Positions 1 through 50,708 of a stretch of 64,000 bases of DNA are shown here, piece by piece; position 1 is the stretch's first letter, and each line of letters opens with the position of its first letter. Below the pieces are notes generated by a model. The model was not told the DNA's origin. It was given only the letters and a program-made list of their open reading frames with translations, and made no database searches. The translations under genes were made by a program, and so were the position numbers. The DNA comes from Candidatus Nomurabacteria bacterium (lineage in GTDB: Bacteria > Patescibacteriota > Minisyncoccia > Phycocordibacterales > CAIZLB01). Location of the stretch: assembly GCA_943356525.1 (NCBI GenBank), contig CALRFG010000005.1, positions 2,921-66,920 of the forward strand, in the 5' to 3' direction.

Positions 1-413
1 AATTTTTCACTAGGGTTGTTTGAAAAGCTTTGTCCAAAGGTCCTTATTTCCTTAAGTAGTCCTGCATCCATTAAGTCTACAATCTTCCCAAGATCTCCTG
101 CATTTCTTGAAATACGATCAGGAGCCCATGTTAGGATACCGTTGTATTTGTTCGCCTTTATATCCTCGATTATCTCGTTAAAGACCTCACGTTGTCCTGT
201 TTCTTTGGCTGAGTGGCTTTCTCTCTTCATTGTTACAATCTCCAGGTTTTCTCTCTCAGCGAGCTGTAACATCTCTTTTATCTGTGAATCTATTGAAAGA
301 ACCTGTCTTTCCTCAGATTCGGTTGATTTTCTTGCATAAAGGCAGTATTTAACCTTTACTGCTACTTGTGCCAATTGTGGCATTTCATAACCGATCGGTG
401 CTGTTGTTTTCAT
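1..413 (-). CDS. Serine recombinase (resolvase/invertase catalytic domain), N-terminal ~137 aa. The gene runs off the left window edge.
   Basis: Reverse-strand translation from ATG at 413: MKTTAPIGYEMPQLAQVAVKVKYCLYARKSTESEERQVLSIDSQIKEML...ILTWAPDRISRNAGDL. It shows the YxRxSTxxQ catalytic Ser motif and the resolvase DR(I/L)sR motif. It is absent from the ORF track only because it is truncated. Confidence 0.75.
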   Translation of the reverse strand, partial: MKTTAPIGYEMPQLAQVAVKVKYCLYARKSTESEERQVLSIDSQIKEMLQLAERENLEIVTMKRESHSAKETGQREVFNEIIEDIKANKYNGILTWAPDRISRNAGDLGKIVDLMDAGLLKEIRTFGQSFSNNPSEK

Positions 414-520
414 ATATACATTGATGACGCAAAAGTGAGAGTAAGTCTAGGGTTTTTGTTGATTGTAAAAGTTTATCCTGTTTACCAAAATACTTTAAAA
501 ATAAAGGTTTTTATAGTAAG

Positions 521-3500
521 ATGGATAATATGTCTACCTCAATAAATAATATTGGCGATAATACACTTTCTTCAAATTTAAAGAGTATTTTACCAAATTG
601 TGACAAAATAGATGCACTGGTTGGATATTTTTATTTCTCTGGATTTAAGGATTTACATAATGAATTAGCAGATAAACAGATAAGAATATTGGTTGGAATG
701 GATATTGATAAAAAGATTATAGATAAAGTTTCAACATTAAAAGATCTTAATTTAGATTCACATACAACTGATACAAAAATATCTTCTAGATCTGGATCAA
801 AGGATGATTATATTGAAAATTTTTCAAGGATTTTTAACGACACAGACTTTTTTGACAATGATGAGTCACAAAAATCTTTTGAGGTATTTCTGGATAAAAT
901 CAAAGACGGTAGTTTACAAATTAAAAAAACTCCACAAGCAAATCATTCTAAATTTTATATATTACATAATAAACCCGAATTCTCGACAAATGGAATAACT
1001 CCGGGTATTGTCATAGAAGGATCTAGTAACCTAACTTTCTCAGGTCTAAAAGGTCAAGGTGAGCATAATCGTATTTTAACCGAAAAACATTATTATGAAG
1101 AGGATGTTAAAAGATTTAATGAGACATGGGCTGATCCTAATAACATTATCATAACAGATTTAGATTCCGCAGAGAGTTTTATAAAAGAGATAAAAGATAA
1201 AATATGGCTCTATGCTCTGCCTGATCCAATGTTGATGTACTATAAGGTTTTAAGTGAGTATTTTGCAGTCTCCGAAATAGAAGATATGAAAACCCCAAAA
1301 CATATAACAGGCGGGAAGTTCTCTGATCTTAAGTATCAAAAAGATGCGATTAATCTAGGTATAGATCGTATTAAGAAATTCGGCGGCGTGATTATTGCTG
1401 ACGTGGTGGGTTTAGGTAAAAGTATTATCGCTTCTGCAATAGCTCATAATTTAGGATATAAAACTATAATCATTGCACCACCTCATCTTGAAAGTCAATG
1501 GAAAGATTATGCATCGGAATTTGATTTTAAGGGTCATATTTATTCAACAGGAAAAATAGAAGATGCCCTTCAAAGACATGAAGACGATAAAGGTAAGTTG
1601 TTAATAATACTAGATGAGGCTCATAAACACCGAAATGAGGATACTGGTAATTATAAATCTCTGCACAGACTTTGTGCAGGTAATTATGTAATGGCTTTAT
1701 CTGCAACACCTTTTAATAACGACCCAAAAGATATTTATGCCTTAATTAAATTATTTAGTACCCCCGGTCAATCAACAATAAGGACTGTTGAAAATTTAAG
1801 TATGTCATTCCATATGTTATTTAAAAGATACAAGGCTGTTCGGAGGGATTTAAGAAAAAATTCAAAAGATGAATCAGATGGTTCCGAAATTAAGATAGAA
1901 CTTCATTCAATTGCTGATGAATTAAGAAAAATGATCGAACCTCTTATTATAAGACGTTCTAGACTTGATTTGGAAGAGATCGATGAATATCGAGAGGACT
2001 TAAAAGCACAAGGTGTTGCTTTTGCGAAAGTAAAAGATCCTCAATTGTTAGAGTATGACCTTGGAGAAATGTTTGATTTATATGTTGAAACTCTTGAGAA
2101 GATAGCACCTGAAGATAAAAGTACTAGTTTTATAGGTGCCAGATATAAACCAGCGTCATATATAAATGAAGGATCAAAATTTTTAGAAAAACTTATTGAG
2201 CAGGATGATGAGGATGGTATGTCTGCTGAAGAAAAGTTGCAGAGAATTACTCAAGCGCAAAGTAACCTCGCTCGTTTTATGAGAAGACTTTTGGTACGTC
2301 GTTTTGAAAGTTCTATAGGTGCTTTCAAGTTGTCTTTAAAAAATATGATTGATTCTTCTGAAATAATGTTAGATTGGTATGTGAATCGTCGTGAGGTTCC
2401 TATATTTAAAAAAGGAATGTTGCCAGATACAGAATATTTAGATGAATTACCTGACAATGAGTTAGATGCTTTGATTCTAAATTTAGAAGAAAAAGGTTTG
2501 ATTAGAATACCTATTAATGAATTAAAATCTGACTTTATCAATGATCTTCAGCATGATATTAGTATATTAAGAGATATAGATAATGCTTGGTCAAACAAAA
2601 CAACTGATCCTAAATATAATTTTTTCAAACAAAAAATTATTCAATCACTTGAAGAAAATTCAAATAGAAAAATTGTAGTATTTACCGAATTCTCTGACAC
2701 TGCTAATTATGTGTTTGAAAAGTTAAAAAAAGATGGATTAAATAGGGCTTTTAAATATAGTTCTGAAGACGCATCTGATGATAATAAAAAAATAATAAAA
2801 CAAAACTTTGACGCAGGTTTAGATGAATCAAAACAGGTTAACGATTTTGATATTATTATTGCCACTGATGCAATTTCAGAAGGGTTCAATCTTCACAGGG
2901 CGGGTGCAATTATTAACTATGACATACCTTATAATCCAACACGTGTAATTCAACGTGTTGGACGTATTAATCGTATAAACAGAAAAGTGTTTGAAGAATT
3001 GTATATCTATAACTTTTTCCCAACACTTACTGGTGAAAAAGAAACAAGAACTAAAGCTATATCTACACTTAAGATGGATTTGATCCACACCCTTTTAGGT
3101 GAAGATACTAAAACCTTAACTTCAGAAGAGGATCTTCATAATTATTTTGCAAAACAATATAATGAAGAAAATAATAAAAATGAAAGTTTATCTTGGGATG
3201 CTCCATATAGAAACATGTGGCTTAAGATAAAAGATGATAAGAATATTATGGATCAAATATCTCGTATTCCTCATCGATCAAGAATTGCACGTAAAAATAA
3301 AGATGTCGATGGTGTTGTAGCTTTTGCAAAAAAAGGAAGTAGTTATGTGTTTGCTTTTGGTAAAACACCTGAAACCGTTGAAATAGTTTCTCCAAGAATT
3401 GCATTACCTTTATTTAATCAAGTTCTAGATTCTGAAACATCCTCACAGACAACTGTAAATTTTGATCCTATATACAAAATGGCAAAAGATCACATCTTTA

Positions 3501-3823
3501 AAGATAATACAAAAGCATCTGTTGATGGAGGTAGAAAGCAAGATTCTCTGAATAGAATTAAATTATTAAGTGAATTGTATCCACAAGCAAAAGATTTGTG
3601 TTTAGATATTATAAGATCAATCAAAGATCTGGATGCGTTACCAAATGGTGTTCTTAAGGAAATTGTTGAACTTCGTATTGATAAAACTAATCCAGAAAAA
3701 GCGTATCTTGAACTAAAAGAACTTATCCCAAGTAAATATCTAGAAAGTATATTTGAAACTGCTGATAGAGCAAATGATGATAGTCAACTAATTGTTCTTT
3801 CTGAAGAATTAATTAAAATATGA
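521..3823 (+). CDS. Fusion of an HKD (phospholipase-D family) nuclease domain and an SNF2-family helicase. Likely the restriction/translocase subunit of an RM-like defence module.
   Basis: The N-terminus carries HSKFYILHNK...GSSNLT (HxK(x)4D...GSxN PLD motif). Helicase motif I is ADVVGLGKSIIA, motif II is ILDEAHKHRN (DEAH), and motif III is SNF2-type LSATPFNNDPKDIYALIKLF. The C-lobe reads IIIATDAISEGFNLH...QRVGRINR. The gene overlaps the next gene by ATGA. Confidence 0.8.
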   Translation: MDNMSTSINNIGDNTLSSNLKSILPNCDKIDALVGYFYFSGFKDLHNELADKQIRILVGMDIDKKIIDKVSTLKDLNLDSHTTDTKISSRSGSKDDYIENFSRIFNDTDFFDNDESQKSFEVFLDKIKDGSLQIKKTPQANHSKFYILHNKPEFSTNGITPGIVIEGSSNLTFSGLKGQGEHNRILTEKHYYEEDVKRFNETWADPNNIIITDLDSAESFIKEIKDKIWLYALPDPMLMYYKVLSEYFAVSEIEDMKTPKHITGGKFSDLKYQKDAINLGIDRIKKFGGVIIADVVGLGKSIIASAIAHNLGYKTIIIAPPHLESQWKDYASEFDFKGHIYSTGKIEDALQRHEDDKGKLLIILDEAHKHRNEDTGNYKSLHRLCAGNYVMALSATPFNNDPKDIYALIKLFSTPGQSTIRTVENLSMSFHMLFKRYKAVRRDLRKNSKDESDGSEIKIELHSIADELRKMIEPLIIRRSRLDLEEIDEYREDLKAQGVAFAKVKDPQLLEYDLGEMFDLYVETLEKIAPEDKSTSFIGARYKPASYINEGSKFLEKLIEQDDEDGMSAEEKLQRITQAQSNLARFMRRLLVRRFESSIGAFKLSLKNMIDSSEIMLDWYVNRREVPIFKKGMLPDTEYLDELPDNELDALILNLEEKGLIRIPINELKSDFINDLQHDISILRDIDNAWSNKTTDPKYNFFKQKIIQSLEENSNRKIVVFTEFSDTANYVFEKLKKDGLNRAFKYSSEDASDDNKKIIKQNFDAGLDESKQVNDFDIIIATDAISEGFNLHRAGAIINYDIPYNPTRVIQRVGRINRINRKVFEELYIYNFFPTLTGEKETRTKAISTLKMDLIHTLLGEDTKTLTSEEDLHNYFAKQYNEENNKNESLSWDAPYRNMWLKIKDDKNIMDQISRIPHRSRIARKNKDVDGVVAFAKKGSSYVFAFGKTPETVEIVSPRIALPLFNQVLDSETSSQTTVNFDPIYKMAKDHIFKDNTKASVDGGRKQDSLNRIKLLSELYPQAKDLCLDIIRSIKDLDALPNGVLKEIVELRIDKTNPEKAYLELKELIPSKYLESIFETADRANDDSQLIVLSEELIKI

Positions 3824-6800
3824 AATTAAACGAAAAATACAATCAAACTTATTTTACTGAATTTGTGGCAAATCTTTTACCAGAAGATTTTGTTTTACGT
3901 GAGGAAGATATAATAATTAAAAAAGATAGGTATAAGGAAATAACCAAGGCAAAAGAACTTGGTTTTTGTAAGTCTTTAGATTTACATGTTTTAGAAATGG
4001 ATCATAATCACAACAAAGACCCTAGGGTTATTATTGCTACTGATGCGTTTAAGATATTGGCAGATCATTGGATTAATAAGGCACTAGTTATATTTAAAAA
4101 TAACGATTCAGAAAATTATCGTCTCTCGTACCTAACCATAAATCTTGATTTAAATGATAAAAACAAAATAATTAAAAATTACTCTAATGCCAGAAGATAT
4201 TCATTTTATCTAGGTGTTGGTGCTAAAACAAAAACACCTGAACAACAACTTTTGGGGAAGGGTAAGATAAAAGACCTAGAGGATTTACTTAACAGGTTTT
4301 CTGTTGAGGTAGTTAATAAACAGTTCTATTTAGAAGTTGCTAAGTTTTTCGACGAACTTGTTTCTGTTGATAAAGAAAATTTGGTTACACTTAATCCATT
4401 AAATGTTGGTTTAAACGCTCGAAAAAGTTTTGCTGTAAGACTTATTGGACGTATTATGTTTTGTTGGTTTCTTAAGCAAAAAAAATCTGACAGAGGTCAA
4501 TTAATTCCAGATGAAATACTGTCCTCTAAGGCTGTGTCTGGTAATTATTATCACAACATTTTAGAGCCTTTATTTTTTGGTATTTTAAACACAAGTATTG
4601 ACGCACGTGACATAAGAAGTGAATTATTTGATAATGTTCCTTATTTAAACGGTGGATTATTTAATCCTCAGGCTGATGATTATTATGAGTTAAATCGTGA
4701 TACTTTTGTTTCTAAATATGTAGATATTTTTACTATAAAAGATGATTGGTTTATAAAATTCTTTGAGCTTCTAGAGTTGTATAATTTCACCATTGATGAG
4801 AATACTGTTTTTGATCAAGAATTGTCTGTTGATCCTGAAATGTTGGGTCGTATTTTTGAAAATTTACTTGCTGAAATTAATCCAGAGACAGGTAGTAGTG
4901 AGCGTAAAAGAACAGGTAGTTTTTATACACCAAGGCAGATTGTAGAGTACATGGTTGATCAATCGTTGATTGAATATTTAGAAATAAATACTGGTATAGA
5001 AAATGGGAAAATAGCCGCCCTCGTTAGTTATGATTTAAATGATGATACAGAAAACCCTATTAATGATGAAGAAAAAAAGAAAATTATATATGCTCTTGAA
5101 TCTTTAAAGATATTAGATCCTGCCTGTGGATCTGGTGCTTATCCAATAGGTGTATTACAAAAAATTGTATATATACTTCAACAAATTGATCCAGATTGTA
5201 CCATGTGGTTAGATGAAAAACTTGTGGGTGTGTCGGATTTATATAAACAAAAAATAATCAACGAGGTAAAACAAAATCCTTTTGACTACACTAGAAAATT
5301 AGATGTAATTAAGAATTCTATTTTTGGTGTTGATATTCAACCCATTGCTGTAGATGTGGCTCGTTTAAGATGTTTCCTGACTTTGATTGTAGAATCTGAA
5401 ATTAATGATACAAAACCAAATAGGGGTATAGAACCATTACCAAACTTAGATTTTAAATTTGTGTGTGCTAACACTCTTATATCAGCACCTGAGCAAAGTA
5501 TTGAAGATGAAAACACTCTCTTCGGTGATTTTTTTCAAGAAAAAATGACTTCTGCCATAGATAGATATTTTTCATCATCTGGAGAAAATAAAAGAAGTGC
5601 TAATAATGAAATACATAAATTAATTGATGGAAAAATAGAAGAAAAAATAGGTCATATTGCAAATTTCACTTCACTTGGAGGTATTAAAGAGATTGAAGAG
5701 ATGCTTATAAAGGCTAATAAAAAAGATATAGACAAACATTCAAATATACTTAAATTATGGGCTAGTTATAAAAATATTTTTGAAAATAAACCTGTAGATT
5801 TTTTTGATACTAAATATTTTTTCCCGGGAATTAAAGATGGTTTTGATATAGTTATAGGTAATCCTCCTTATGTTCAAATTCAGAAGTTTTCAGGTACTGA
5901 GGTACAAAAAAATCTCCAAGATCAAAATTATAAAACTTTTGAAAAAACAGGTGACTTGTATGCTTTATTTTATGAGAGGGGTTTAATGTTAACAAAAAAG
6001 GATTATGGATTGCTTTGTTATATTACTTCAAATAAGTGGATGAGATCTGAATACGGAAGATCTCTTCGTCAATATTTTGTTGAACATGATCCTAAGATTC
6101 TTATTGATCTTGGGGGAAATGTTTTTGAATCTGCTACTGTTGATACGAATATTTTATTAATACAAAATAGAAAAAACAGAAAAGAAACAAGCGTGGTTTC
6201 TGTTAAAAGCGATAAGGGTGAATTTGGTACTCAAATAAAAAAAGATTCTATAAATATGTCTTTTTCAAACAACGACGGTTGGTTCATTGGATCTTTGTCA
6301 GAAATAGGTTTGAAAAATAAGATAGAAAAAATAGGAAAAAGACTTAAAGATTGGGATATTAAAATAAATTATGGAATAAAAACAGGTTACAATGAAGCTT
6401 TTGTTATCACAAAAGAAAAAAGAGATGAATTAATAAGTAAAGATTTTAAATCAGCTGAAATTATAAAGCCGATATTAAGAGGTAGAGATATAAAAAGATA
6501 TGCTTATGATTTTAAAGATTTGTATATTATAGCAACTGGTTATGATTTAGATGTGCCAAATATGTACCCAGCTATTTTTAATCATTTAAAACAATTTGAA
6601 CAAAAAGCAAAAAAGAGATGTGATAAGGGTAAGAATTGGTGGAATCTTCGGGCCTGTGTTTACTACGATGATTTTGCAAAAGATAAGGTTGTATGGGCAG
6701 AGACAGATCAAAACCTGAATAGTGTTTTAATTTCTGACGAATTTTATTTACAGAAAACTTGCTTTATGATTACTGGATCCAACTTGAAGTACATAAATGC

Positions 6801-7086
6801 TTTATTAAATTCAAAAATTTCTCAATATAATATTAGATCAATATGCTCTGGTTTAGGAGAAAAGGGTATGAGTTTAACCAAAGAATCAGTATCTAAGTTA
6901 CAAATTCCACCTATCACTAAAGAAAATCAAGATATTATTTCTAATATAGAAGCACTTGCTGGTCAAATCATTGAAGCAAAAAAATCAAATCTAGATTTAA
7001 CCACAAAGCATTTAGAAGCAAAAATTGATGATCTTGTATATAAACTATATGAATTGACTGAAAATGAAATAAAAATTATAGATTAA
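3820..7086 (+). CDS. Eco57I/MmeI/PglX-family (gamma-class) N6-adenine DNA methyltransferase with a C-terminal target-recognition domain. DrmMI/Type IIG-like.
   Basis: SFYTPRQIVEYMVDQ (FYTP motif X) is followed by ILDPACGSGAYP (motif I, FxGxG) and IVIGNPPYVQIQ (motif IV, NPPY). About 330 aa precede the MTase core and a ~380-aa C-terminal region is typical of a TRD. The 4-bp overlap with the upstream helicase implies translational coupling. Confidence 0.8.
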   Translation: MKLNEKYNQTYFTEFVANLLPEDFVLREEDIIIKKDRYKEITKAKELGFCKSLDLHVLEMDHNHNKDPRVIIATDAFKILADHWINKALVIFKNNDSENYRLSYLTINLDLNDKNKIIKNYSNARRYSFYLGVGAKTKTPEQQLLGKGKIKDLEDLLNRFSVEVVNKQFYLEVAKFFDELVSVDKENLVTLNPLNVGLNARKSFAVRLIGRIMFCWFLKQKKSDRGQLIPDEILSSKAVSGNYYHNILEPLFFGILNTSIDARDIRSELFDNVPYLNGGLFNPQADDYYELNRDTFVSKYVDIFTIKDDWFIKFFELLELYNFTIDENTVFDQELSVDPEMLGRIFENLLAEINPETGSSERKRTGSFYTPRQIVEYMVDQSLIEYLEINTGIENGKIAALVSYDLNDDTENPINDEEKKKIIYALESLKILDPACGSGAYPIGVLQKIVYILQQIDPDCTMWLDEKLVGVSDLYKQKIINEVKQNPFDYTRKLDVIKNSIFGVDIQPIAVDVARLRCFLTLIVESEINDTKPNRGIEPLPNLDFKFVCANTLISAPEQSIEDENTLFGDFFQEKMTSAIDRYFSSSGENKRSANNEIHKLIDGKIEEKIGHIANFTSLGGIKEIEEMLIKANKKDIDKHSNILKLWASYKNIFENKPVDFFDTKYFFPGIKDGFDIVIGNPPYVQIQKFSGTEVQKNLQDQNYKTFEKTGDLYALFYERGLMLTKKDYGLLCYITSNKWMRSEYGRSLRQYFVEHDPKILIDLGGNVFESATVDTNILLIQNRKNRKETSVVSVKSDKGEFGTQIKKDSINMSFSNNDGWFIGSLSEIGLKNKIEKIGKRLKDWDIKINYGIKTGYNEAFVITKEKRDELISKDFKSAEIIKPILRGRDIKRYAYDFKDLYIIATGYDLDVPNMYPAIFNHLKQFEQKAKKRCDKGKNWWNLRACVYYDDFAKDKVVWAETDQNLNSVLISDEFYLQKTCFMITGSNLKYINALLNSKISQYNIRSICSGLGEKGMSLTKESVSKLQIPPITKENQDIISNIEALAGQIIEAKKSNLDLTTKHLEAKIDDLVYKLYELTENEIKIID

Positions 7087-7394
7087 CTTTGTTAATAGTG
7101 TGGTGTTGGTAACTTAACTACACAAATCCTTTTTATTAAGCTAAGCTTTAAAAGTACCTAAAAAATTGGTATAATCAAATCACAATTTAACAGTCGACCT
7201 AACCCCTAAAAGCCTTGTGTTTCTAGGATATGGTTGCAAATCCGTCCAAAGTAAAGAACTCCTAGTCAGGGTTCACTTTGGACGGTCATATCTGGAAACA
7301 GGTATGGACACTCCCTACGGGGTTTGTCGACCTGGCTAGGAGCTTTTTACTACCTAGTCAGATCACAATTAATCATAAAAAACCGTCCAAATTT

Positions 7395-7736
7395 ATGAAA
7401 AAAATAATTAGTAGTATTTTTAATTCTACAACCGCACTCATACTTGGTATATTAGTTTTAATTTCAGGAGCTAATCCGGGTCAGTATGGAAATTTAGCAA
7501 CAGGTTTTCTTATTATAATCGGAACCTTAGCATATAGGTCAGCTAAAAAAAGAATTGCATCAGGTTCTAAAAATAACACTAAGTTTGTTTTTGAGATAAT
7601 TGCAATGATTGTAATTGTTCTCACAATTATACTTCAAAACAACCTTGCTCAAGTTCTTGTGGAGGATCCTTTTCCGAATCTAATAATCCCTGCAATATTG
7701 ATAGGTTCATATATTAATATTATAAGAAAAAAATAA
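7395..7736 (+). CDS. Small hydrophobic membrane protein (hypothetical).
   Basis: The ATG at 7395 (MKKIISSIF...) sits inside track ORF 7278..7736. Several predicted TM segments. The long upstream region is structured and non-coding. Confidence 0.4.
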   Translation: MKKIISSIFNSTTALILGILVLISGANPGQYGNLATGFLIIIGTLAYRSAKKRIASGSKNNTKFVFEIIAMIVIVLTIILQNNLAQVLVEDPFPNLIIPAILIGSYINIIRKK

Positions 7737-7777
7737 TCATATAAATAAATACCACAGATTACTCTGTGGTATTTACG

Positions 7778-8311
7778 TTACTCACTCTCATAGGTTTCTT
7801 GTTCGTCAGATTGATCCATCATTTCCTTGAATGTTCCGTTGTGTACCATCTCAACTAATTTTTCTACCTCTTCCTCAGACATGTTTTCTTTCTCGGCTAC
7901 ATATGCAATATTCTCTAAGTATTCCATCTCTTCTTTCGTTAAAGCAATAACGTTAGGTATGCGAGCATGTGCATATGCTGGAGAATCGTGATAATTCCTG
8001 TCTTTCAAAGTTTCAATTCTGTATTTTCGGTTCATGTAATTACCATGATTGTTTTCAAGATAGAATTTGATAGCACCGAAGTGACCTTCTTTAATCTTTT
8101 TGAACAATGCAGACTCTGTAAGCTCAATCATACACTTGTGTCCTTCTTGTAATGCTCCATTTACATTGATTTGAAACATCTTATCGCTCCTCATCCAACG
8201 ATAGAAAGTGTTACGAGATATACCAACTTTTTTGGTCGCATGGTTTATGAAAGGGGCATCACGAAGAATATCGACGATATCTTGCTTAAACTTGTTGTGG
8301 TTGAGACTCAT
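7778..8311 (-). CDS. Phage-type HTH DNA-binding protein, terminase small subunit-like.
   Basis: ATKKVGISRNTFYRWMRSDKMF helix-turn-helix near the N-terminus and an acidic C-terminus. Its start overlaps the upstream ParB-MTase stop by 26 bp. This pairing is common in phage packaging modules. Confidence 0.4.
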   Translation of the reverse strand: MSLNHNKFKQDIVDILRDAPFINHATKKVGISRNTFYRWMRSDKMFQINVNGALQEGHKCMIELTESALFKKIKEGHFGAIKFYLENNHGNYMNRKYRIETLKDRNYHDSPAYAHARIPNVIALTKEEMEYLENIAYVAEKENMSEEEVEKLVEMVHNGTFKEMMDQSDEQETYESE

Positions 8312-9659
8312 GAATTTTTACCCGTTTTTTACCGGTTAATTTTTCCCAACGATTTAGTATTACTTCAGCATACACAGGAGACTTCTCCATGATGAAGCAT
8401 TTTCTGTGTAGCTTTGTTGAAGCGATAAGTGTCGATCCAGATCCACCGAAAGGTTCAAGAACGAGCTGTCCTCGTTTGGTGAGTACTTTGATATATGGAA
8501 TCAGAATCTCGATTGGTTTCGTACCGAATATTATCCCTTGTCCCGATGACTTCTCATCAGCTGCATTGTAATCAATGAAATCAGTTGGACAGAATTTCTT
8601 TCCTTTACCATATGACTCCCAATGAGGTTTACCTTGAATAGCAAAGAGGGCGGTCTCGTATTCATTCTGTAATAACTGATCATCTTCAGGTTCAATATCA
8701 CATTCGATATTTTCATCCGATGTAGCAACCATGGCTATGTCATGTTTGTTAAAGAACTTATGAGTTCCTGCATAACCTTGATTACGATTCGGAAGTCTCC
8801 ACACGACCATGTTTCTTACTTTCCAATGCTTATCCATCTCACCCCAAATGGTTCGAATGTTTTTCCAATTCTCATAGCAAATGATTGAGAAATCTTTTGC
8901 TTGAACTTTGGTGACGTTTGCCATCCATAATTCTGTGAAGTTGTCAGGTAATATATCTGTCTCAAGATATCTGCGATTTTTCTTAGCACCAAATCCTGTA
9001 ACAGCATCTCCATGTTTTCCTTTACCGTGTAGGTAATCTAGAATATATGGAGGATCTGTCATCACCATGTCTACCTTATTTTCGCCACATAGCATCAGCA
9101 TGTTTTCTTCGATGGTGGAATCACCGCACATTAAGCGTGATCCATCTAGATCATATATGTCACCTTTTTGCACCGTTACGTTTTCAATACCAACCTTACT
9201 CAACTCTTTTTCAAGATCAAATATGGTTTCGGTATCCTCGTCCTCGAATATCTGATCAAGCTCAATAGAATCAAATCCCAAGTCTTCAAGAAATGACTCG
9301 TCGAACTTAGCTAATAATTCTAAATCCCATTCACCCTGGTTTTTGTTAAGACGAAGACACAGCTCTTTTTCTTTATCTAGATCTGGAATATTAATGTATA
9401 CGACAGGAACTTCTGTGTATCCAAGCTCTTTGAGAACTTTGAGTCTGAAGTTTCCTCCGATGACAATATTTTTTCTTTCTTCGGCAGAGTTGGCAAGGAT
9501 AGGATCAACTATGCCGTAGCGAGTGATACTATCTTTTAACTCTTTTGTATTTTGTTCTGACCAAGTCCGTGGATTATAGTCAGGGGAGATTAGTAAGTTT
9601 GTTTCGATGTACACGACATCAAGTTTTGGATCATTTGACCCTATGTTTATGTTTTGCAT
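8286..9659 (-). CDS. ParB-like nuclease domain fused to a beta-class (N4-C/N6-A) DNA methyltransferase. Phage-type orphan methylase.
   Basis: The N-terminus is ParBc-like (YNPRTWSEQNTKELKDSITRYGIVDPILAN). The MTase has motif IV VMTDPPY upstream of motif I FGGSGST, which is the beta-class order. Confidence 0.8.
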   Translation of the reverse strand: MQNINIGSNDPKLDVVYIETNLLISPDYNPRTWSEQNTKELKDSITRYGIVDPILANSAEERKNIVIGGNFRLKVLKELGYTEVPVVYINIPDLDKEKELCLRLNKNQGEWDLELLAKFDESFLEDLGFDSIELDQIFEDEDTETIFDLEKELSKVGIENVTVQKGDIYDLDGSRLMCGDSTIEENMLMLCGENKVDMVMTDPPYILDYLHGKGKHGDAVTGFGAKKNRRYLETDILPDNFTELWMANVTKVQAKDFSIICYENWKNIRTIWGEMDKHWKVRNMVVWRLPNRNQGYAGTHKFFNKHDIAMVATSDENIECDIEPEDDQLLQNEYETALFAIQGKPHWESYGKGKKFCPTDFIDYNAADEKSSGQGIIFGTKPIEILIPYIKVLTKRGQLVLEPFGGSGSTLIASTKLHRKCFIMEKSPVYAEVILNRWEKLTGKKRVKIHESQPQQV

Positions 9660-10083
9660 GGTTTTGTTGTTTTTGTTGAGACGTCTTACTATAGGACAGT
9701 AAAACTATCTCGTTATTACAACTTCTTACGAAGAGGGGTCAGTGATGTATTTTCATTATTGCACTATAAAAAATCTTAGCAAGTGGTATGTGTTAATAAG
9801 TCTTATATTATAGCACTGCTATAATATCCTTATACAGTAAGGCTTTTATGTGTATCATTTGTAACATTTTTGTCAAAACACCTATGTTTTTCAATGAATT
9901 GTCGTTCAAAAATGATACACATAATTTTTCTATTTTTATACTAAAAAGTATCGGTTTGACACATGTATTTTATTGTTTTATATAAATATATTACTTATCA
10001 ATATCAATATTTTATTGCAAAGATGTAAAATTGTTAAAAATATCTATATTGATTTATAGAATGAAAGTAATAAAATTATATAC

Positions 10084-10752
10084 ATGGCAATATCTAAAAA
10101 GGCTATTGAAAATTACGAAAAAAGTTTAAATAAAAAGAATGGTATGAGTATTTTGTATGAACAATCGTCAGGTGGTATGGATAACCTGGCAAAGGTATTT
10201 GATCTTTTGTTTAAATTCAAAGTAGAAGACGATAAGAGAAAAGAAAAGTTAAAAGATTTTCCAAATGGTTTTGAATTAGAGGGTAGGGGTAGAACCTGCT
10301 ATATATGTAAAGACTCAAATTATGGAGATAAACCAAGCTGGTATGATAAATATGGTGTTAAGTGTTTAGTCTGTCAGTACGCTATTAACCAAAATGAGAT
10401 AGATCCAGAACTTATAAAAAGCGATGAGGATTGGTATTCAAAATATGACCTAGAATCTAAGTTTAATTTAAAAACACCGACCATAAGAGGTTGGGTAAAG
10501 AAAGGTCTCCTTAAGGAGAGGATTTTGAGTTGTTATGGAAAAGGTGCACATGTTAGGTTGTACTTAGTAGAAGATAATAAAGATTTTTTACCACCTAAAT
10601 ACATGGTTAAATCAGATATTGTAAATATTAAAGAGGGTGACAGAACTTATTCAAGTTTAGAGCCTTGGTATAATTTTGTTGATCCATACAAACATTTGAA
10701 AGGATATGGAATTATGGAGTATGTGATGGTTAGTGAAAAAGATGGTGAATAA
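10084..10752 (+). CDS. Zinc-ribbon protein (CxxC...CxxC). Candidate retron accessory/effector protein.
   Basis: GRTCYICKDSNYGDKPSWYDKYGVKCLVCQ. It is co-oriented with, and immediately upstream of, the candidate msr/msd and the RT. No recognisable enzymatic motif. Confidence 0.5.
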   Translation: MAISKKAIENYEKSLNKKNGMSILYEQSSGGMDNLAKVFDLLFKFKVEDDKRKEKLKDFPNGFELEGRGRTCYICKDSNYGDKPSWYDKYGVKCLVCQYAINQNEIDPELIKSDEDWYSKYDLESKFNLKTPTIRGWVKKGLLKERILSCYGKGAHVRLYLVEDNKDFLPPKYMVKSDIVNIKEGDRTYSSLEPWYNFVDPYKHLKGYGIMEYVMVSEKDGE

Positions 10753-10802
10753 CTTATATTAGAATAATAATTTTCATGTTATAATACTTATGCTTGTATT
10801 TT

Positions 10803-11014
10803 AAAAACCACCCATTTTTTATCTTTTTATACAAAAGATTTCAAGTTTAAAATCAAAACATAAGACACTGTATAAACTTTACTATAAGACTTCGTCGAAT
10901 AGAATAGTTTGAACAGTTGAGATGTTAGAATTTGTCCCTTGAGAGATTATCTTTTTGAGAGGTATAGTAGTCACATACTAACAATGATCGCAATACAAGT
11001 TAGTGGGGTGGTTT
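10803..11014 (+). ncRNA. Candidate retron msr/msd non-coding RNA bounded by a1/a2 inverted repeats.
   Basis: a1 is aaaaaccaccc (10803-10813) and a2 is ggggtggttt (11005-11014). Their 10-nt cores (10804-10813 vs 11005-11014) are reverse complements at 9/10 positions and lie ~200 nt apart. An extended -10 TGTTATAAT at 10778-10786 sits just upstream, and the RT ORF follows a2. The internal msd stem and the branching G were not confidently resolved. Confidence 0.35.
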
Positions 11015-11129
11015 GGTCGTTGTCCACTTCAACAAATTAAATATATGGATAATATTATTATCACTTTATTTATAATGTATCTCATAATATGTGAGACACA
11101 TAAAAGATAAGACCTTAGTGGATAATAAA

Positions 11130-12005
11130 ATGATATACTCATCCAAAAAAGAACTATTAGAATTTCTAAATATAAAAGAAAATTTTCTTTATCCTGATTT
11201 TTCAAAAAAATATTATACAAAAGAATTAAAAAAGAAAAGTGGAGGTATTCGCTTAATAAAACCTCCGAGTGTTAACCTAAAAAAAGTTCAAAGATTAATT
11301 CTGGATAAAATACTTTATAAACATAAGAACCTTGAGTGTGTGTATGGTTTATCTAAAGATAAAGGTGTTGTTGCAAATGCAAATTTTCATAAGAAAAATT
11401 TTGATAAACAATTGGTAAATTTAGATATAGAAAACTTTTTTACTAATGTTTTAAAAAAAGAGGTCAACAAGGTATTTAAAAGTTTAGGTTTTAATAAAGA
11501 AAATTCAAATATTCTAACAAAAATATGTACGGTGGAAGGTTCTTTACCTCAGGGTGCGCCAACCAGTCCATATTTAGCTTCTTTATCTTGTATAAAAATG
11601 GATAAAGAGATATATAACTATTGTAGAAAACAAAAGTTTACTTATACTCGTTATTTTGACGATATAAGTATTTCTGGAATGAATATTAATGATAAAAATA
11701 TTGTTGATATTGAAAAGATAGTAAACAAAAATAAATTTAATTTAAATAAAACAAAAACTACATTTTATGAAGCAGATTTAGATAAGATTATAAATGGAGT
11801 TTTTATATCCAAAAATGGTTTATCTGTTACTAATAAATATAAAGATGAGGTAAAGAGTTTGTATATTAATTATTTGAAAGATCCCTGTGTTCATAATAAA
11901 AAAGCCTACAAAGGTAAACTTAGTTTTTATTTACATATAAACAAAAAAGAAGCTGTTGATTTTATTAATAAAATAAGCTATCTAACTGGGATTGGACCAG
12001 TGTAG
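11130..12005 (+). CDS. Retron-type reverse transcriptase.
   Basis: The RT motifs are SGGIRLIKPPS (RT1/2), NANFH (NAxxH) directly before LDIENFF (motif A), LPQGAPTSPYLASL (motif B'), YTRYFDDISISG (Y-x-DD), and INGVFIS in the position of the retron VTG motif. The protein is ~290 aa. The track ORF starts at GTG 11091; the ATG at 11130 is preferred. Confidence 0.8.
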   Translation: MIYSSKKELLEFLNIKENFLYPDFSKKYYTKELKKKSGGIRLIKPPSVNLKKVQRLILDKILYKHKNLECVYGLSKDKGVVANANFHKKNFDKQLVNLDIENFFTNVLKKEVNKVFKSLGFNKENSNILTKICTVEGSLPQGAPTSPYLASLSCIKMDKEIYNYCRKQKFTYTRYFDDISISGMNINDKNIVDIEKIVNKNKFNLNKTKTTFYEADLDKIINGVFISKNGLSVTNKYKDEVKSLYINYLKDPCVHNKKAYKGKLSFYLHINKKEAVDFINKISYLTGIGPV

Positions 12006-12035
12006 ACAGCTTGTGTAAGAATGAATTAACGGAAA

Positions 12036-13058
12036 TTACTTCTTTCTTCTTGTGATAAACACGATTGAGAAAATCAAAAGTATCATTATTTGTGACGGTT
12101 CAGGAATTGTTGTGGGTGTTAGGAGGAAAACATTACCATTACTTCCTATACCTGCAATTTGTCCTTGATCGTTAATCACTCGAGGGTAAAAAACACCTCC
12201 AGTCGGATCTAAATCAGAAACAATTTCAATGTCTTTAAAAGTACCATTATCATAGATACGATTTCCAGCAATAATTTGACCCAAATTGTTAATATCTCTC
12301 ATGTCATAATCGGGAAAGTAAGCAGTAACACCGTCTTTCCAAAGAAAACCACCGTTGCTGGACATTCCGATTATTTGACCGTCGTCGTTTATTGCAAATG
12401 ACTCACTATAACTTCCTGTAAGACCAAGACTTGATATGGTACCGTTTTGCCACATAACTGCACTTATTGTTCCTGATCCGTAAGATTTACCAACTGTTAT
12501 ATTGTTGTTATTAATATCATTTGCCTGCGCTCTGGTGTCATTAGAGAGATGAGGTAGGCTAATCGTGATTCCGTTTTCGAGATAAAAGTTACCTCCAAGA
12601 TTTACAGATCCACCTCCGACTACGACACCGCTGTCGTTTATTGAATATGCAATGCTTCCGTTTGATGGACCTATTCCTGTTGTTAATAAATCGGCACCAA
12701 TGTTGTTTTGTAAAACAAAGCTACGATTTACCCCTGGTAAACTAGGGGAAGTGTATGAACCAACCACTTGTCCAGAGTTGTTTACGGAATATGCTCTTGT
12801 AGATGTGTTTGTAAATATTCCACCGAGGTTGTTAAGAATCGTGACCGATCCATTATTCCAGACAATACCTTTGGTTGATGAGTTTGCGCCGTGTAACGAA
12901 TAACCTGTTACAGTTCCTGAATTGTTGATGTCTGTAAGTGTGATTGTGTCACTGAGGTCTGTGTTCGGATTACCAAGGTTGACCGCTGTGTAGAACAGGC
13001 TAGCTGCCGACAGTATTGGACTGAATGCGAGGACGATGATTGAGATGTAAGTTTTCAT
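12036..13058 (-). CDS. Secreted repeat protein with a PEP-CTERM sorting signal (exosortase substrate-like).
   Basis: N-terminal signal peptide MKTYISIIVLAFSPILSAAS. Repeated NxSGxVVG/NDDGQIIG modules. The C-terminus ...TTIPEPSQIMILLIFSIVFITRRKK has PEP, a TM helix and a basic tail. Confidence 0.65.
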   Translation of the reverse strand: MKTYISIIVLAFSPILSAASLFYTAVNLGNPNTDLSDTITLTDINNSGTVTGYSLHGANSSTKGIVWNNGSVTILNNLGGIFTNTSTRAYSVNNSGQVVGSYTSPSLPGVNRSFVLQNNIGADLLTTGIGPSNGSIAYSINDSGVVVGGGSVNLGGNFYLENGITISLPHLSNDTRAQANDINNNNITVGKSYGSGTISAVMWQNGTISSLGLTGSYSESFAINDDGQIIGMSSNGGFLWKDGVTAYFPDYDMRDINNLGQIIAGNRIYDNGTFKDIEIVSDLDPTGGVFYPRVINDQGQIAGIGSNGNVFLLTPTTIPEPSQIMILLIFSIVFITRRKK

Positions 13059-13695
13059 TTTGTGTTTTCAAGTTGTGCTTTTTGGATATAACTTAATATC
13101 CAAGATGTTTGTATTAGATAGTATATCAATATAAAAGTCAATATGTTGCAATAAAAAAATCCCGACCCACAGTCCTAAAATTCCACTTTAAAAACCACCC
13201 ATAATACCCTTACAACACTTGAAACATTTGGTACTTAACCCGAGTGTCCCGCATGTTTTGAACGTAGAGAAAAACTGCGGGATGAGAAAGCGCATAGTTG
13301 CGCTTTCGTGAGGGATTCGAAAAGCTTTGCTATATTTTTGAGAATTTGAAAAATTCGAGAAAATTGCAAAGGTGTACCGAACATGTAATGTTCGAATCCC
13401 TACAATAAAATAAGGAACGTAGTGACTATATTTTATACTATGTGATATAGGGAGCAGAGCGACCATATATCATCTCCGTCTCCGCCATTACAACTTAGTA
13501 TCGGAGTTGACCTACATGGCTTAATACAATGCTTTAGCTAAACTTGACAGATATGTTATAAATGGTGTATAAAATAAAACTATACCTTAACAAAGTTTAA
13601 AGTCGCCATAGCTAAAAGCTACCTAAATATAGGTATTTCCTAGCTATGGCGAAGTCAAAACGACTAGCCTGGCACAATAACTAAACTACAATACA

Positions 13696-46808: not shown

Positions 46809-47071
46809 AGACGACCATACAGTATGATAATAAACCAACGAAAAAAACGGATATAAAGACCAAAGCAATAGCTTAAAGTTTTCATATCCGCTTTTCGTTG
46901 AAAGCGGATTTTCCTTCGCAAATTGACAATTACAAACCTTCGCGTAAACAAATTGTTGAGTAAACAGTTTGGCAATCGGGATTTCTCAGGAAAGCCCCCG
47001 GTTGAAAAATTAGGTAAACGCAGAAGGATAATTAACATACATTTTCACGATTGTGGTATATGTATTTCCTA

Positions 47072-50465
<3,394 letters not shown>

Positions 50466-50591
50466 ATATGTATATCCAATCGTGAAAGTGTATGTTAATT
50501 AAATTGTAATTGAAAATCAAAAGTACGTGAGCTAAGCGAAAGATTTCTTTCTTGAAATCTGAAAGCTTAGCGAGCGTCATCGAATCTTTTG

Positions 50592-50708
50592 TTCTGGTGA
50601 CTCGTTGGAGGGGCCACACCTGATCTCATTCCGAACTCAGAAGTTAAGCCCTCTTAAGGCGATGGTACAAGCTTTACGCAAGGAGAGTAGCTTGTCGCCG
50701 GAACAAAG
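50592..50708 (+). rRNA. rrf: 5S ribosomal RNA.
   Basis: CCACACCTGATCTCATTCCGAACTCAGAAGTTAAGCCC...GCGATGGTAC...GAGAGTAGCTTGTCGCCGGAA. The terminal helix pairs with the 5' end ttctggtgac. Confidence 0.85.

Follow-up and report, generated by a model that had tools for sequence, protein, structure and literature searches.

The first 9,659 positions of the DNA presented here hold part of a serine recombinase gene, a pair of restriction-modification (RM)-like genes, a gene resembling a small terminase subunit and a gene for a ParB-DNA methylase fusion. The question raised by this locus is whether these genes belong to the core genome or to a mobile island and, in the latter case, where the island ends and how it arrived. 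The window is the whole stretch of 64,000 nucleotides that was analysed, from contig CALRFG010000005.1 of a Candidatus Nomurabacteria bacterium. In the original prediction, positions 1-9659 were described as the remnant of a prophage-derived integrative element carrying defence and modification cargo. The region is very probably the larger part of a complete site-specific integrative element located at the 3' end of a tRNA-Ser(GCU) gene. The island's own 440-aa large serine recombinase (LSR) would have inserted it at the extreme 3' end of this gene.

Boundaries and attachment sites of the island

Two contigs, L001 and L002 (numbers preceded by L denote contigs and loci outside the window), were found by an exact look-up of the helicase protein encoded in the window and are 100% identical to the window in the overlap. 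The leftward extension that had been proposed as a check was obtained from these contigs and supplies both the rest of the recombinase gene and the tRNA-Ser(GCU) gene. The complete LSR gene (L001 8571-9893) ends 909 bp past the left edge of the window, and the gene that was called truncated is cut by this edge alone. The tRNA-Ser(GCU) gene is located 1.9 kb beyond the recombinase, with its 3' end towards the island. Two small open reading frames (ORFs) and a DUF3800 gene, the latter a further piece of island cargo, lie between them. Past the tRNA-Ser gene, away from the island, are the genes for cytochrome b5, ferric reductase, RecG, tRNA-Ile, FtsH and SmpB.

Three contigs that lack the island (L098, L099 and L100) were found by an exact look-up of the 241-aa protein encoded to the right of a conspicuous 39-bp repeat. 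All are short and belong to the same species; they were assembled from three different metagenome samples, and their names follow two contig-naming styles. In all three, the cytochrome b5 and tRNA-Ser genes (L001 up to 6687) are joined directly to the DNA from window position 13246 onward, with a 4-bp overlap. Comparison of the occupied and empty-site contigs places the island between L001 6688 and window 13252, a length of 16,045 bp. The window holds the right-hand 13.25 kb of the island (1-13252) and the other 2,793 bp lie left of the window, so that the element is longer at both ends than the 9,659 positions first assigned to it. The word remnant does not fit, since the integrase, attL and attR are all intact.

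The sequence of attB in the empty-site contigs is GGGTTCGAATCCCTCCGTCTCCGC followed by ATGTTTTGAACG. The left junction, attL, consists of CTCCGTCTCCGC followed by CATTACAACTTAGTATCGGAGTTGACC, and attR consists of TTGGTACTTAACCCGAGTGTCCCGC followed by ATGTTTTGAACG; the deduced attP is therefore TTGGTACTTAACCCGAGTGTCCCGC followed by CATTACAACTTAGTATCGGAGTTGACC. When occupied and empty alleles are compared, the deduced attP has CCGC alone in common with attB, a pattern expected after insertion by a serine recombinase and not by a tyrosine integrase. The LSR would be the catalyst of the attP x attB recombination. The P arm at attR is an imperfect mimic of the tRNA-Ser 3' end (12/18 nt), and the tRNA-Ser gene at attL stays intact after insertion.

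Evidence for both alleles is found within a single sample. One of its scaffolds, 54 kb long, stops exactly at 13249, and another, of 16,151 bp, consists of the island with about 51-55 nt of each flank. This combination is the signature of an assembly bubble and indicates that occupied and empty alleles coexist in the sample. The 16,151-bp scaffold was also considered as an excised circle; this was rejected, since the scaffold runs 51 nt into the right flank and represents the integrated form.

Relatives of the host agree with this picture. The synteny comparison that had been proposed shows that two related species, with a flanking ferric reductase that is 74% identical, have the tRNA-Ser gene, then a 228-bp segment and the right-flank genes, and no island. 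In the sister strain L090 (GCA_964928005.1), with a flank that is 98% identical, a different element of the same family occupies the same tRNA gene; its LSR is 61% identical and a different arm is found by the tRNA. Between the LSR and the tRNA of this strain (L090 1231-7491) are a gene for a 2086-aa protein with a faint HATPase_c_3 match and two unknown ORFs. The 2086-aa protein may be a large single-gene defence candidate. Composition does not mark the island: GC content and GC skew, the latter proposed as a further check, track gene orientation.

The 39-bp repeat (L001 6676-6714 and its copy in the window) was examined as attL and attR of a 16.28-kb island. This assignment was rejected, since the empty-site contigs keep the right-hand copy and join the tRNA at window 13246. 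The right-hand copy is located 221 bp outside the island, 228 bp past the tRNA junction of the empty-site contigs, and looks like an attL-like scar left when a family member inserted here at an earlier time. The intervening segment S adjoins the tRNA-Ser gene in the empty-site contigs and in the related species L093 and L091. The genes that follow the 39-bp copy (241-aa protein, SDR and fasciclin; 13513-~16100) have a higher GC content of about 0.40, are absent at that position in the two related species and may be the leftover of an older family member. Direct repeats of the tRNA end gave candidate element ends in siblings L042, L043, L051, L078 and L041, some of which proved to be attL-like junctions between tandem elements.

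The 228-bp segment (window 13246-13473; L093 9216-9441; L091 5050-5292) is 91-98% identical where the flanking genes are 75-84% identical. It is partly tandem-duplicated in L091, and partial copies are found beside the tmRNA gene of the sister strain (L090 18243-18344 and 19095-19194). A hairpin with a 9-bp stem is located inside the segment, which ends in a partial tRNA-Ser 3' end. This segment could represent a small repeat element, or else an RNA.

The recombinase clade, the LOOT RNA and the backbone

The 440-aa LSR contains the Pfam domains Resolvase, Recombinase and, weakly, Zn_ribbon_recom, and matches the integrase family phrog_95 (2e-63). The catalytic Y26ARKS30 is present and a CxxC motif is found at residue 304. 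The best NCBIfam match is CcrB, at 116 bits against a cutoff of 900; with a score this far under the cutoff the LSR is not a Ccr orthologue. No tyrosine integrase (Phage_integrase-type match) was found among the island ORFs in the Pfam, PHROG and NCBIfam scans. Beside the LSR gene, left of the window (L001 8146-8538), is a 130-aa ORF that starts with MNLYIDIDGVLL, which is like HAD-phosphatase motif I, and matches Pfam Hydrolase_3 with E = 0.05.

More than 471 relatives of the LSR were confirmed in contigs from one genome per species, and 80 of these were kept. The retained proteins are 67-87% identical and come mostly from metagenome-assembled genomes of Patescibacteria; a few are labelled Gammaproteobacteria, Rhabdochlamydiaceae or archaea. 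A tRNA-Ser gene on the opposite strand is located within 6 kb of the LSR stop codon in 44 of the 49 loci with at least 5 kb downstream (median distance 1.5 kb), and at 6-9 kb in two further loci. The tRNA-Ser anticodons are GCT, TGA, CGA, GGA and 'ACT'. Directly after the tRNA end (..TCCGC[CA]), the P' arm (A/G)GACAAyTTwnTATCGGnG..ACC is present in 45/53 loci. One close relative is found at a tRNA-Asp gene, which also ends in ..TCCGCCA and is followed by the same P' arm. More distant LSRs on IMG/VR contigs (44-59% identical) are located beside tRNA-Gln, Asn, Glu, Trp and Asp, with other arms. In L016, L023, L024, L033, L034, L061 and L114, the target tRNA by the LSR was assigned the unusual anticodon ACT by ARAGORN; these genes are often found beside a normal tRNA-Ser(GCT) gene and may be genuine host tRNAs or copies changed by the element.

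Site-specific islands in tRNA genes are a textbook subject, with tyrosine integrases named as their cause; where large DNA cargo is to be inserted, serine integrases are the tools of choice. The authors of Islander stated that the tRNA 3' end was not known as a target of serine integrases (PMC4383910), and no later report of a tRNA-targeting serine-integrase clade was found in the literature search. The LSR resembles the integrases of the phiC31 and Bxb1 prophages and the Ccr proteins of SCCmec cassettes in that a Resolvase, Recombinase and Zn-ribbon protein is encoded at one end of the element, insertion is site-specific, and attB and attP are dissimilar with a very short core (CCGC here). 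The island differs from these systems in its tRNA 3'-end target and in a P arm that imitates the tRNA end. The family differs further in that the P' arm is kept across dozens of hosts, while any sequence that happens to come after the tRNA gene supplies the B' side.

The second characteristic feature is the LOOT RNA, which is located within the gap of about 700 bp that had been noted between the RM-like pair and the terminase-like gene. Both the terminase-like gene and the ParB-methylase gene are present as predicted; the gap between them and the RM-like pair is not empty and contains LOOT and the 113-aa membrane protein ORF (Table 1). This ORF starts 69 nt after LOOT. An unrelated ORF, often with transmembrane segments, is found 50-71 nt after LOOT in 10 of 16 sibling LOOT loci. 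In the siblings, a CTAAGCTA box is conserved in the LOOT promoter, and a TACC-N8-GGTA palindrome covers the -10 hexamer. A hairpin between the convergent 113-aa ORF and TerS-like gene (small terminase subunit, TerS) is probably a bidirectional terminator; the consensus terminator scan did not call it. Two candidates in this interval were discarded. A 152-aa ORF starting at 7278 runs across LOOT and is artefactual, and a CsrC-like match is due to chance, its stem being the same hairpin.

LOOT is found by Rfam in 7 of the 8 sibling loci tested, and a covariance model was built from these Rfam hits. This model detects LOOT in 18/80 genome loci, in every case upstream of the LSR and on the opposite strand, and in nine further loci, which share the opposite strand except for L111 and the upstream position except for L111 and L118 (downstream). 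In the family alignment the share of paired cells is 93%, and changes on both sides are seen in 19 of 25 pairs; slid controls stay under 48%. In the reverse test, the LOOT sequence pattern retrieved four IMG/VR contigs and at least 120 metagenome contigs. The LSR, ParB-methylase and TerS-like genes are present on 3/3 informative IMG/VR contigs. Backbone genes are present on 70 of the 120 metagenome contigs, which have a median length of 5 kb, and on 11 of the 13 in which LOOT is flanked by 4 kb or more on either side. The LSR is located upstream of LOOT in 40/44 cases and on the opposite strand in 41/44, and the terminase genes are convergent with LOOT.

Rfam lists LOOT as an sRNA gene with its function not stated, and the literature search on LOOT gave just one passing mention, on cross-covariation. 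The copy in the window is a full-length match over the gathering score of the Rfam motif, and covariation is strong. Beyond what the Rfam entry gives, LOOT has a defined home in these elements: it diverges from the LSR gene, converges on the terminase genes, is preceded by a promoter of its own and is followed by a variable ORF. This layout suggests an element-encoded regulatory RNA or leader. Behind its operator-like promoter, LOOT could function as an antisense or immunity RNA, or form a leader controlling packaging, excision or an exclusion gene.

Two further observations on LOOT were made. The 10-16 nt before its 5' end (window 7176-7195 and sibling loci; TTACAACTTAATAGG / TCACAATTTAACAGTC) resemble the P' arm core TTACAACTTAGTATCGG; this could represent an integrase half-site or a chance similarity of AT-rich DNA. 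Weak LOOT-like matches (27-33 bits) were detected at L049 4916-5020, L052 4387-4451 and L074 9755-9871. The match in L049 directly follows the reverse transcriptase (RT) gene (3841-4920) of a diversity-generating retroelement (DGR), and those in L052 and L074 apparently have the same relative position; L049 and L074 also hold a strong LOOT copy. LOOT-like folds may thus have a link with DGR RNAs.

Clustering of the ORFs of the 80 loci and profile searches gave the family order ParB-methylase, TerS-like helix-turn-helix (HTH) protein, large terminase subunit (TerL) in some elements, variable cargo, LOOT, LSR and tRNA, in which LOOT is transcribed divergently from the integrase. ParB-methylase homologues that are 60-79% identical occupy the same relative position in sibling elements, and TerS-like homologues are present in 16 sibling loci. 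TerL (phrog_38, 1.4e-84) directly follows the TerS homologue in L041, L047, L075, L080 and many IMG/VR contigs. The order ParB-methylase, TerS, TerL, LSR and tRNA was found on 33 IMG/VR contigs. Homologues of the 222-aa protein are encoded in L014 (381-1013), L121, L130, L131, L133 and L138, in sibling elements without a reverse transcriptase. The LKTPTIRGWVKKGLLK stretch in this protein looks like an excisionase-type HTH, and, instead of a retron effector, the protein may be a regulator belonging to the backbone or a recombination directionality factor. All of the backbone ORFs and the catalytic motifs that were checked are intact.

Table 1. Features of the island and its right flank, in window coordinates
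Feature	Position	Strand	Evidence and remarks
LSR, N-terminal 137 codons	1..413 (coding 3-413)	-	Pfam Resolvase 6e-13; contains YARKSTESEERQVLSIDSQ
HKD(PLD)-nuclease + SNF2 helicase fusion, 1100 aa	521..3823	+	Pfam PLDc_2, SNF2-rel_dom, Helicase_C
N6-adenine methylase with C-terminal TaqI_C target-recognition domain, 1088 aa	3820..7086	+	Pfam Eco57I 2e-36, N6_Mtase, TaqI_C
Promoter-like site of LOOT	7147..7175	+	Strong; TTTAAA-17-tgGTATAAT
LOOT RNA (Rfam RF03000)	7196..7324	+	70.9 bits against gathering score 46.4; model positions 1-121, full length
Small membrane protein ORF, 113 aa	7395..7736	+	
Hairpin, probable bidirectional terminator	7750..7773		TACCACAGA-ttact-CTGTGGTA
Small-terminase-like HTH protein, 177 aa	7778..8311	-	Pfam HTH_Tnp_1_2 1.8e-7; several PHROG TerS families, best 1.1e-7
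ParB_N + N6_N4_Mtase fusion, 457 aa	8286..9659	-	phrog_498 3e-73; DPPY and FGGSG motifs
222-aa protein	10084..10752	+	CxxC..CxxC motif; stretch LKTPTIRGWVKKGLLK; no family match
Retron-type reverse transcriptase, 304 aa	11091..12005	+	Pfam RVT_1 5.5e-20; PADLOC RT_II-A 2e-65
Secreted HAF-repeat protein, 340 aa, PEP-CTERM-like tail	12036..13058	-	NCBIfam HAF_rpt 1.6e-7
attR	13225..13252	+	P arm, then 4-bp common core CCGC at 13249-13252; right end of island
Segment S	13253..13473		Native, right of island and outside it; supplies B' side of attB
39-bp perfect copy of attL junction	13474..13512	+	Last 14 nt of tRNA-Ser + 25-nt P' arm

Cargo genes

The divergent orientation of the recombinase gene and the RM-like pair is as first described. 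The helicase of this pair matches the PADLOC model 'HKD+Snf2' C3a139 over its full length (2.7e-31) and shows partial DrmD matches. Its motifs H142xK..GSSN, GLGKS, DEAH and QRVGR are intact. The methylase reading frame overlaps that of the helicase by 4 nt. The methylase matches the PADLOC model REase_MTase_IIG (5e-142), with the first 200 positions of the profile (the nuclease part) unmatched and its own N-terminal 157 residues outside the alignment. The motifs DPACGSG and NPPY are present, and a weak MmeI_hel match appears at residues 208-281. At the lysine position of the candidate ExK motif this protein has D, and its homologues have D, K or C. As the methylase N-terminus is not demonstrably a nuclease, cutting is assigned to the HKD domain by inference.

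From these domains, the pair is predicted to be an ATP-dependent RM-like system. The methylase, with its target-recognition domain (TRD), would mark the host DNA, and the HKD-SNF2 helicase-nuclease would move along DNA that lacks this mark and cut it. It counts against such a mechanism that the pair falls outside DISARM, Type-2 BREX-related (BR) and type ISP systems in the respective membership tests. Sequence searches for solved structures gave generic helicase and TaqI-methylase matches only.

The Type-2 BR systems contain an HKD-Swi2/Snf2 helicase and an N6-methylase with a nested TRD, together with a DUF499 AAA+ ATPase and a standalone DUF3780 protein (PMC12839542). These systems and class 1 DISARM (DrmD and DrmMI) share with the island the combination of an HKD-Swi2/Snf2 helicase with a large N6-adenine methylase and the predicted RM-like logic. 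The island has just two such genes. It differs from Type-2 BR in that the DUF499 ATPase and DUF3780 are absent, the two genes have the LSR gene and LOOT as neighbours, and the methylase has a C-terminal TaqI_C TRD in a type IIG/IIL-like layout. It differs from class 1 DISARM in the absence of DrmA, DrmB and DrmC, and the DrmD/DrmMI-like matches are partial and under the NCBIfam cutoff (141 vs 610 bits). The type IIG/IIL enzymes Eco57I and MmeI likewise combine an N-terminal domain, a helical spacer, a gamma-class N6A methylase and a TRD in one polypeptide; the methylase of the island differs from these in the unmatched nuclease part of the profile and in being always paired with an HKD-SNF2 helicase.

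The same pair is found in other settings. In L132 it is located between TerL and the LSR, with identities of 43% (helicase) and 38% (methylase), and a Parabacteroides plasmid encodes it as a two-gene operon (42%/31% identical). In L128 6961-12524 (IMGVR_UViG_3300042286_000458), the helicase is 85%, the methylase 65% and the LSR 52% identical to the proteins of the island. The lower identity of the methylase is in keeping with exchange of the RM pair between elements, possibly with a swap of the target-recognition domain. Elsewhere in the family, the cargo slot is occupied by a type I RM system (HsdM/R/S with YgjP), a type III RM system or a DGR (RT with Avd).

The neighbouring retron that had been reported is represented by a retron-type RT, which falls in the retron clade by the PADLOC retron RT models. 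No Rfam match to a retron msr/msd RNA was found, and the inverted repeats upstream of the RT are ambiguous. The HAF-repeat protein gene falls inside the island as bounded by the empty-site contigs.

Far to the right of the island, the 23S rRNA gene (window 47067-50466) exceeds the model by about 475 nt and harbours a group I intron at 49960-50163 (Rfam 65.5 bits). A 5S rRNA gene is located at 50593-50703, and no tRNA or 16S gene is found beside the 23S gene in the window.

Origin and status of the island

The island is phage-derived and is not a complete prophage; TerL was lost or was never present. The label prophage-derived is supported in one part, and the finer labels prophage, phage satellite and relic of a packaging module are not distinguished by the gene content. 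The phage connection is upheld by the TerL genes that directly follow the HTH homologues in siblings, and no phage structural genes were found to go with it: capsid, portal, tail and TerL genes were not detected among the island ORFs with Pfam and PHROG, and no primase, helicase or Rep match indicative of a replication module was found with Pfam, PHROG and NCBIfam. The layout can be compared with that of Islander islands, tycheposons and satellites like the phage-inducible chromosomal islands (PICIs). They have in common with the island that integration takes place at tRNA 3' ends, that tandem arrays and scars occur at one tRNA gene, that the cargo at such a hot spot differs between sister strains, and that integrase, TerS and cargo are combined. 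The island differs from them in its serine (not tyrosine) recombinase, the lack of a long identity block at the true junction, the lack of a recognised replication module and its Patescibacteria hosts. With respect to the Islander hallmark, the intact tRNA gene is found at attL, attR is just an imperfect mimic, and the perfect tRNA fragment (13474-13512) lies outside the island.

The prediction of a mobile island in place of core genome is supported by the same-species contigs without the island, which give its exact junctions. Conserved core synteny, with the recombinase as a domesticated host gene by the tRNA-Ser gene, would account for the finding that tRNA-Ser(GCU), RecG, tRNA-Ile and FtsH are syntenic in several Patescibacteria with an LSR nearby. 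This explanation has next to no probability. Presence and absence are polymorphic within one species, the content differs from that of the 98%-identical sister strain, and the cargo varies among the 80 loci. The LSR is moreover 67-87% identical across lineages, whereas the closest ferric-reductase homologues found outside the species are at most 84% and mostly 51-80% identical. The empty alleles, together with the different element of the sister strain, dispose of the core-synteny alternative. Scarcely more credible is a tRNA island bounded by the 39-bp repeat, formed by a tyrosine integrase or by homologous recombination, with the serine recombinase as a passenger. A perfect 39-bp repeat that includes the last 14 nt of tRNA-Ser does flank the region. 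The empty-site contigs, however, keep the right-hand copy with the preceding 228 bp, no tyrosine integrase is encoded in the island, and the 25 nt past the tRNA end constitute the P' arm, which is conserved throughout the family and moves together with the LSR.

Two other explanations concern the present state of the island. A decayed and immobile prophage, with the polymorphism due to one old insertion or a later deletion and with TerS and the ParB-methylase as functionless relics, is unlikely, and several observations speak for it: the genes for TerL, capsid, portal and replication are missing, no attP junction was found, and the neighbouring scar shows that such elements decay in place. It is opposed by the intact backbone ORFs and catalytic motifs, by the precise att junctions, and by occupied and empty alleles at 100% flank identity, which indicate a recent event. 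In many siblings TerS is likewise found in the absence of TerL, and this suggests a satellite-like form that is stable, not random decay. A phage satellite of the PICI or tycheposon type, with its own integrase, TerS, methylase and defence cargo and with TerL and capsids supplied by a helper phage of the same family, is a possibility that can be held tentatively. The satellite-type layout is present, with an integrase and a TerS-like HTH protein in 16,045 bp (about 16 kb) and no TerL or recognised capsid genes, and related elements with both TerS and TerL exist and could serve as helpers. The tycheposons, which carry cargo, target tRNA genes and are PICI-like, provide a precedent (10.1101/2020.12.28.424599). 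On the other side, neither a replication module nor a helper-responsive regulator was identified in the island, no complete helper phage with structural genes was recognised, and the identity of TerS is drawn from weak profile matches and synteny.

The reading of the island as a complete site-specific element can be extended to its relatives. A phage-derived family of Patescibacteria elements, built around LSRs that use tRNA 3' ends as attB and with LOOT as its own regulatory RNA, is put forward as a tentative and somewhat doubtful proposal; no description of such a family was found in the literature searched. The element would still be able to move and to pass between cells. Several results weigh against the main reading, that of a site-specific element inserted by its own LSR. 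The host was assigned from the names of homologues and from shared synteny. No capsid, portal or replication genes were recognised with PHROG in the island or by the LSR in L075, L131 and L123. The circular attP junction was not found in the contigs with the terminal HAF-repeat gene. The deduced att arms have weak inverted symmetry, and a pattern search of other loci for a P arm, taken as the P' arm in inverted orientation, gave too much noise in the AT-rich DNA to be of use. An exact 39-mer scan of JGI metagenome contigs gave no match, so that a search for attP in these contigs would have served no purpose.

As a single island, the locus is ordinary, and its interest comes from the tRNA-targeting serine-integrase clade and the association with LOOT. 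The practical result is the exact boundary of the island at window 13252, which is not at the conspicuous 39-bp repeat. The rule that assigns such targets to tyrosine integrases would have to be revised for a serine-integrase clade of this size directed at tRNA 3' ends, and the conserved P' arm and compact 440-aa LSR are ready for testing. LOOT, an orphan structured RNA, now has a defined context, promoter and neighbours, which makes its function testable. In this family, the cargo slot is fixed between the packaging genes and the integrase, and the family shows how RM systems, retrons and DGRs are exchanged among the small-genome Patescibacteria.

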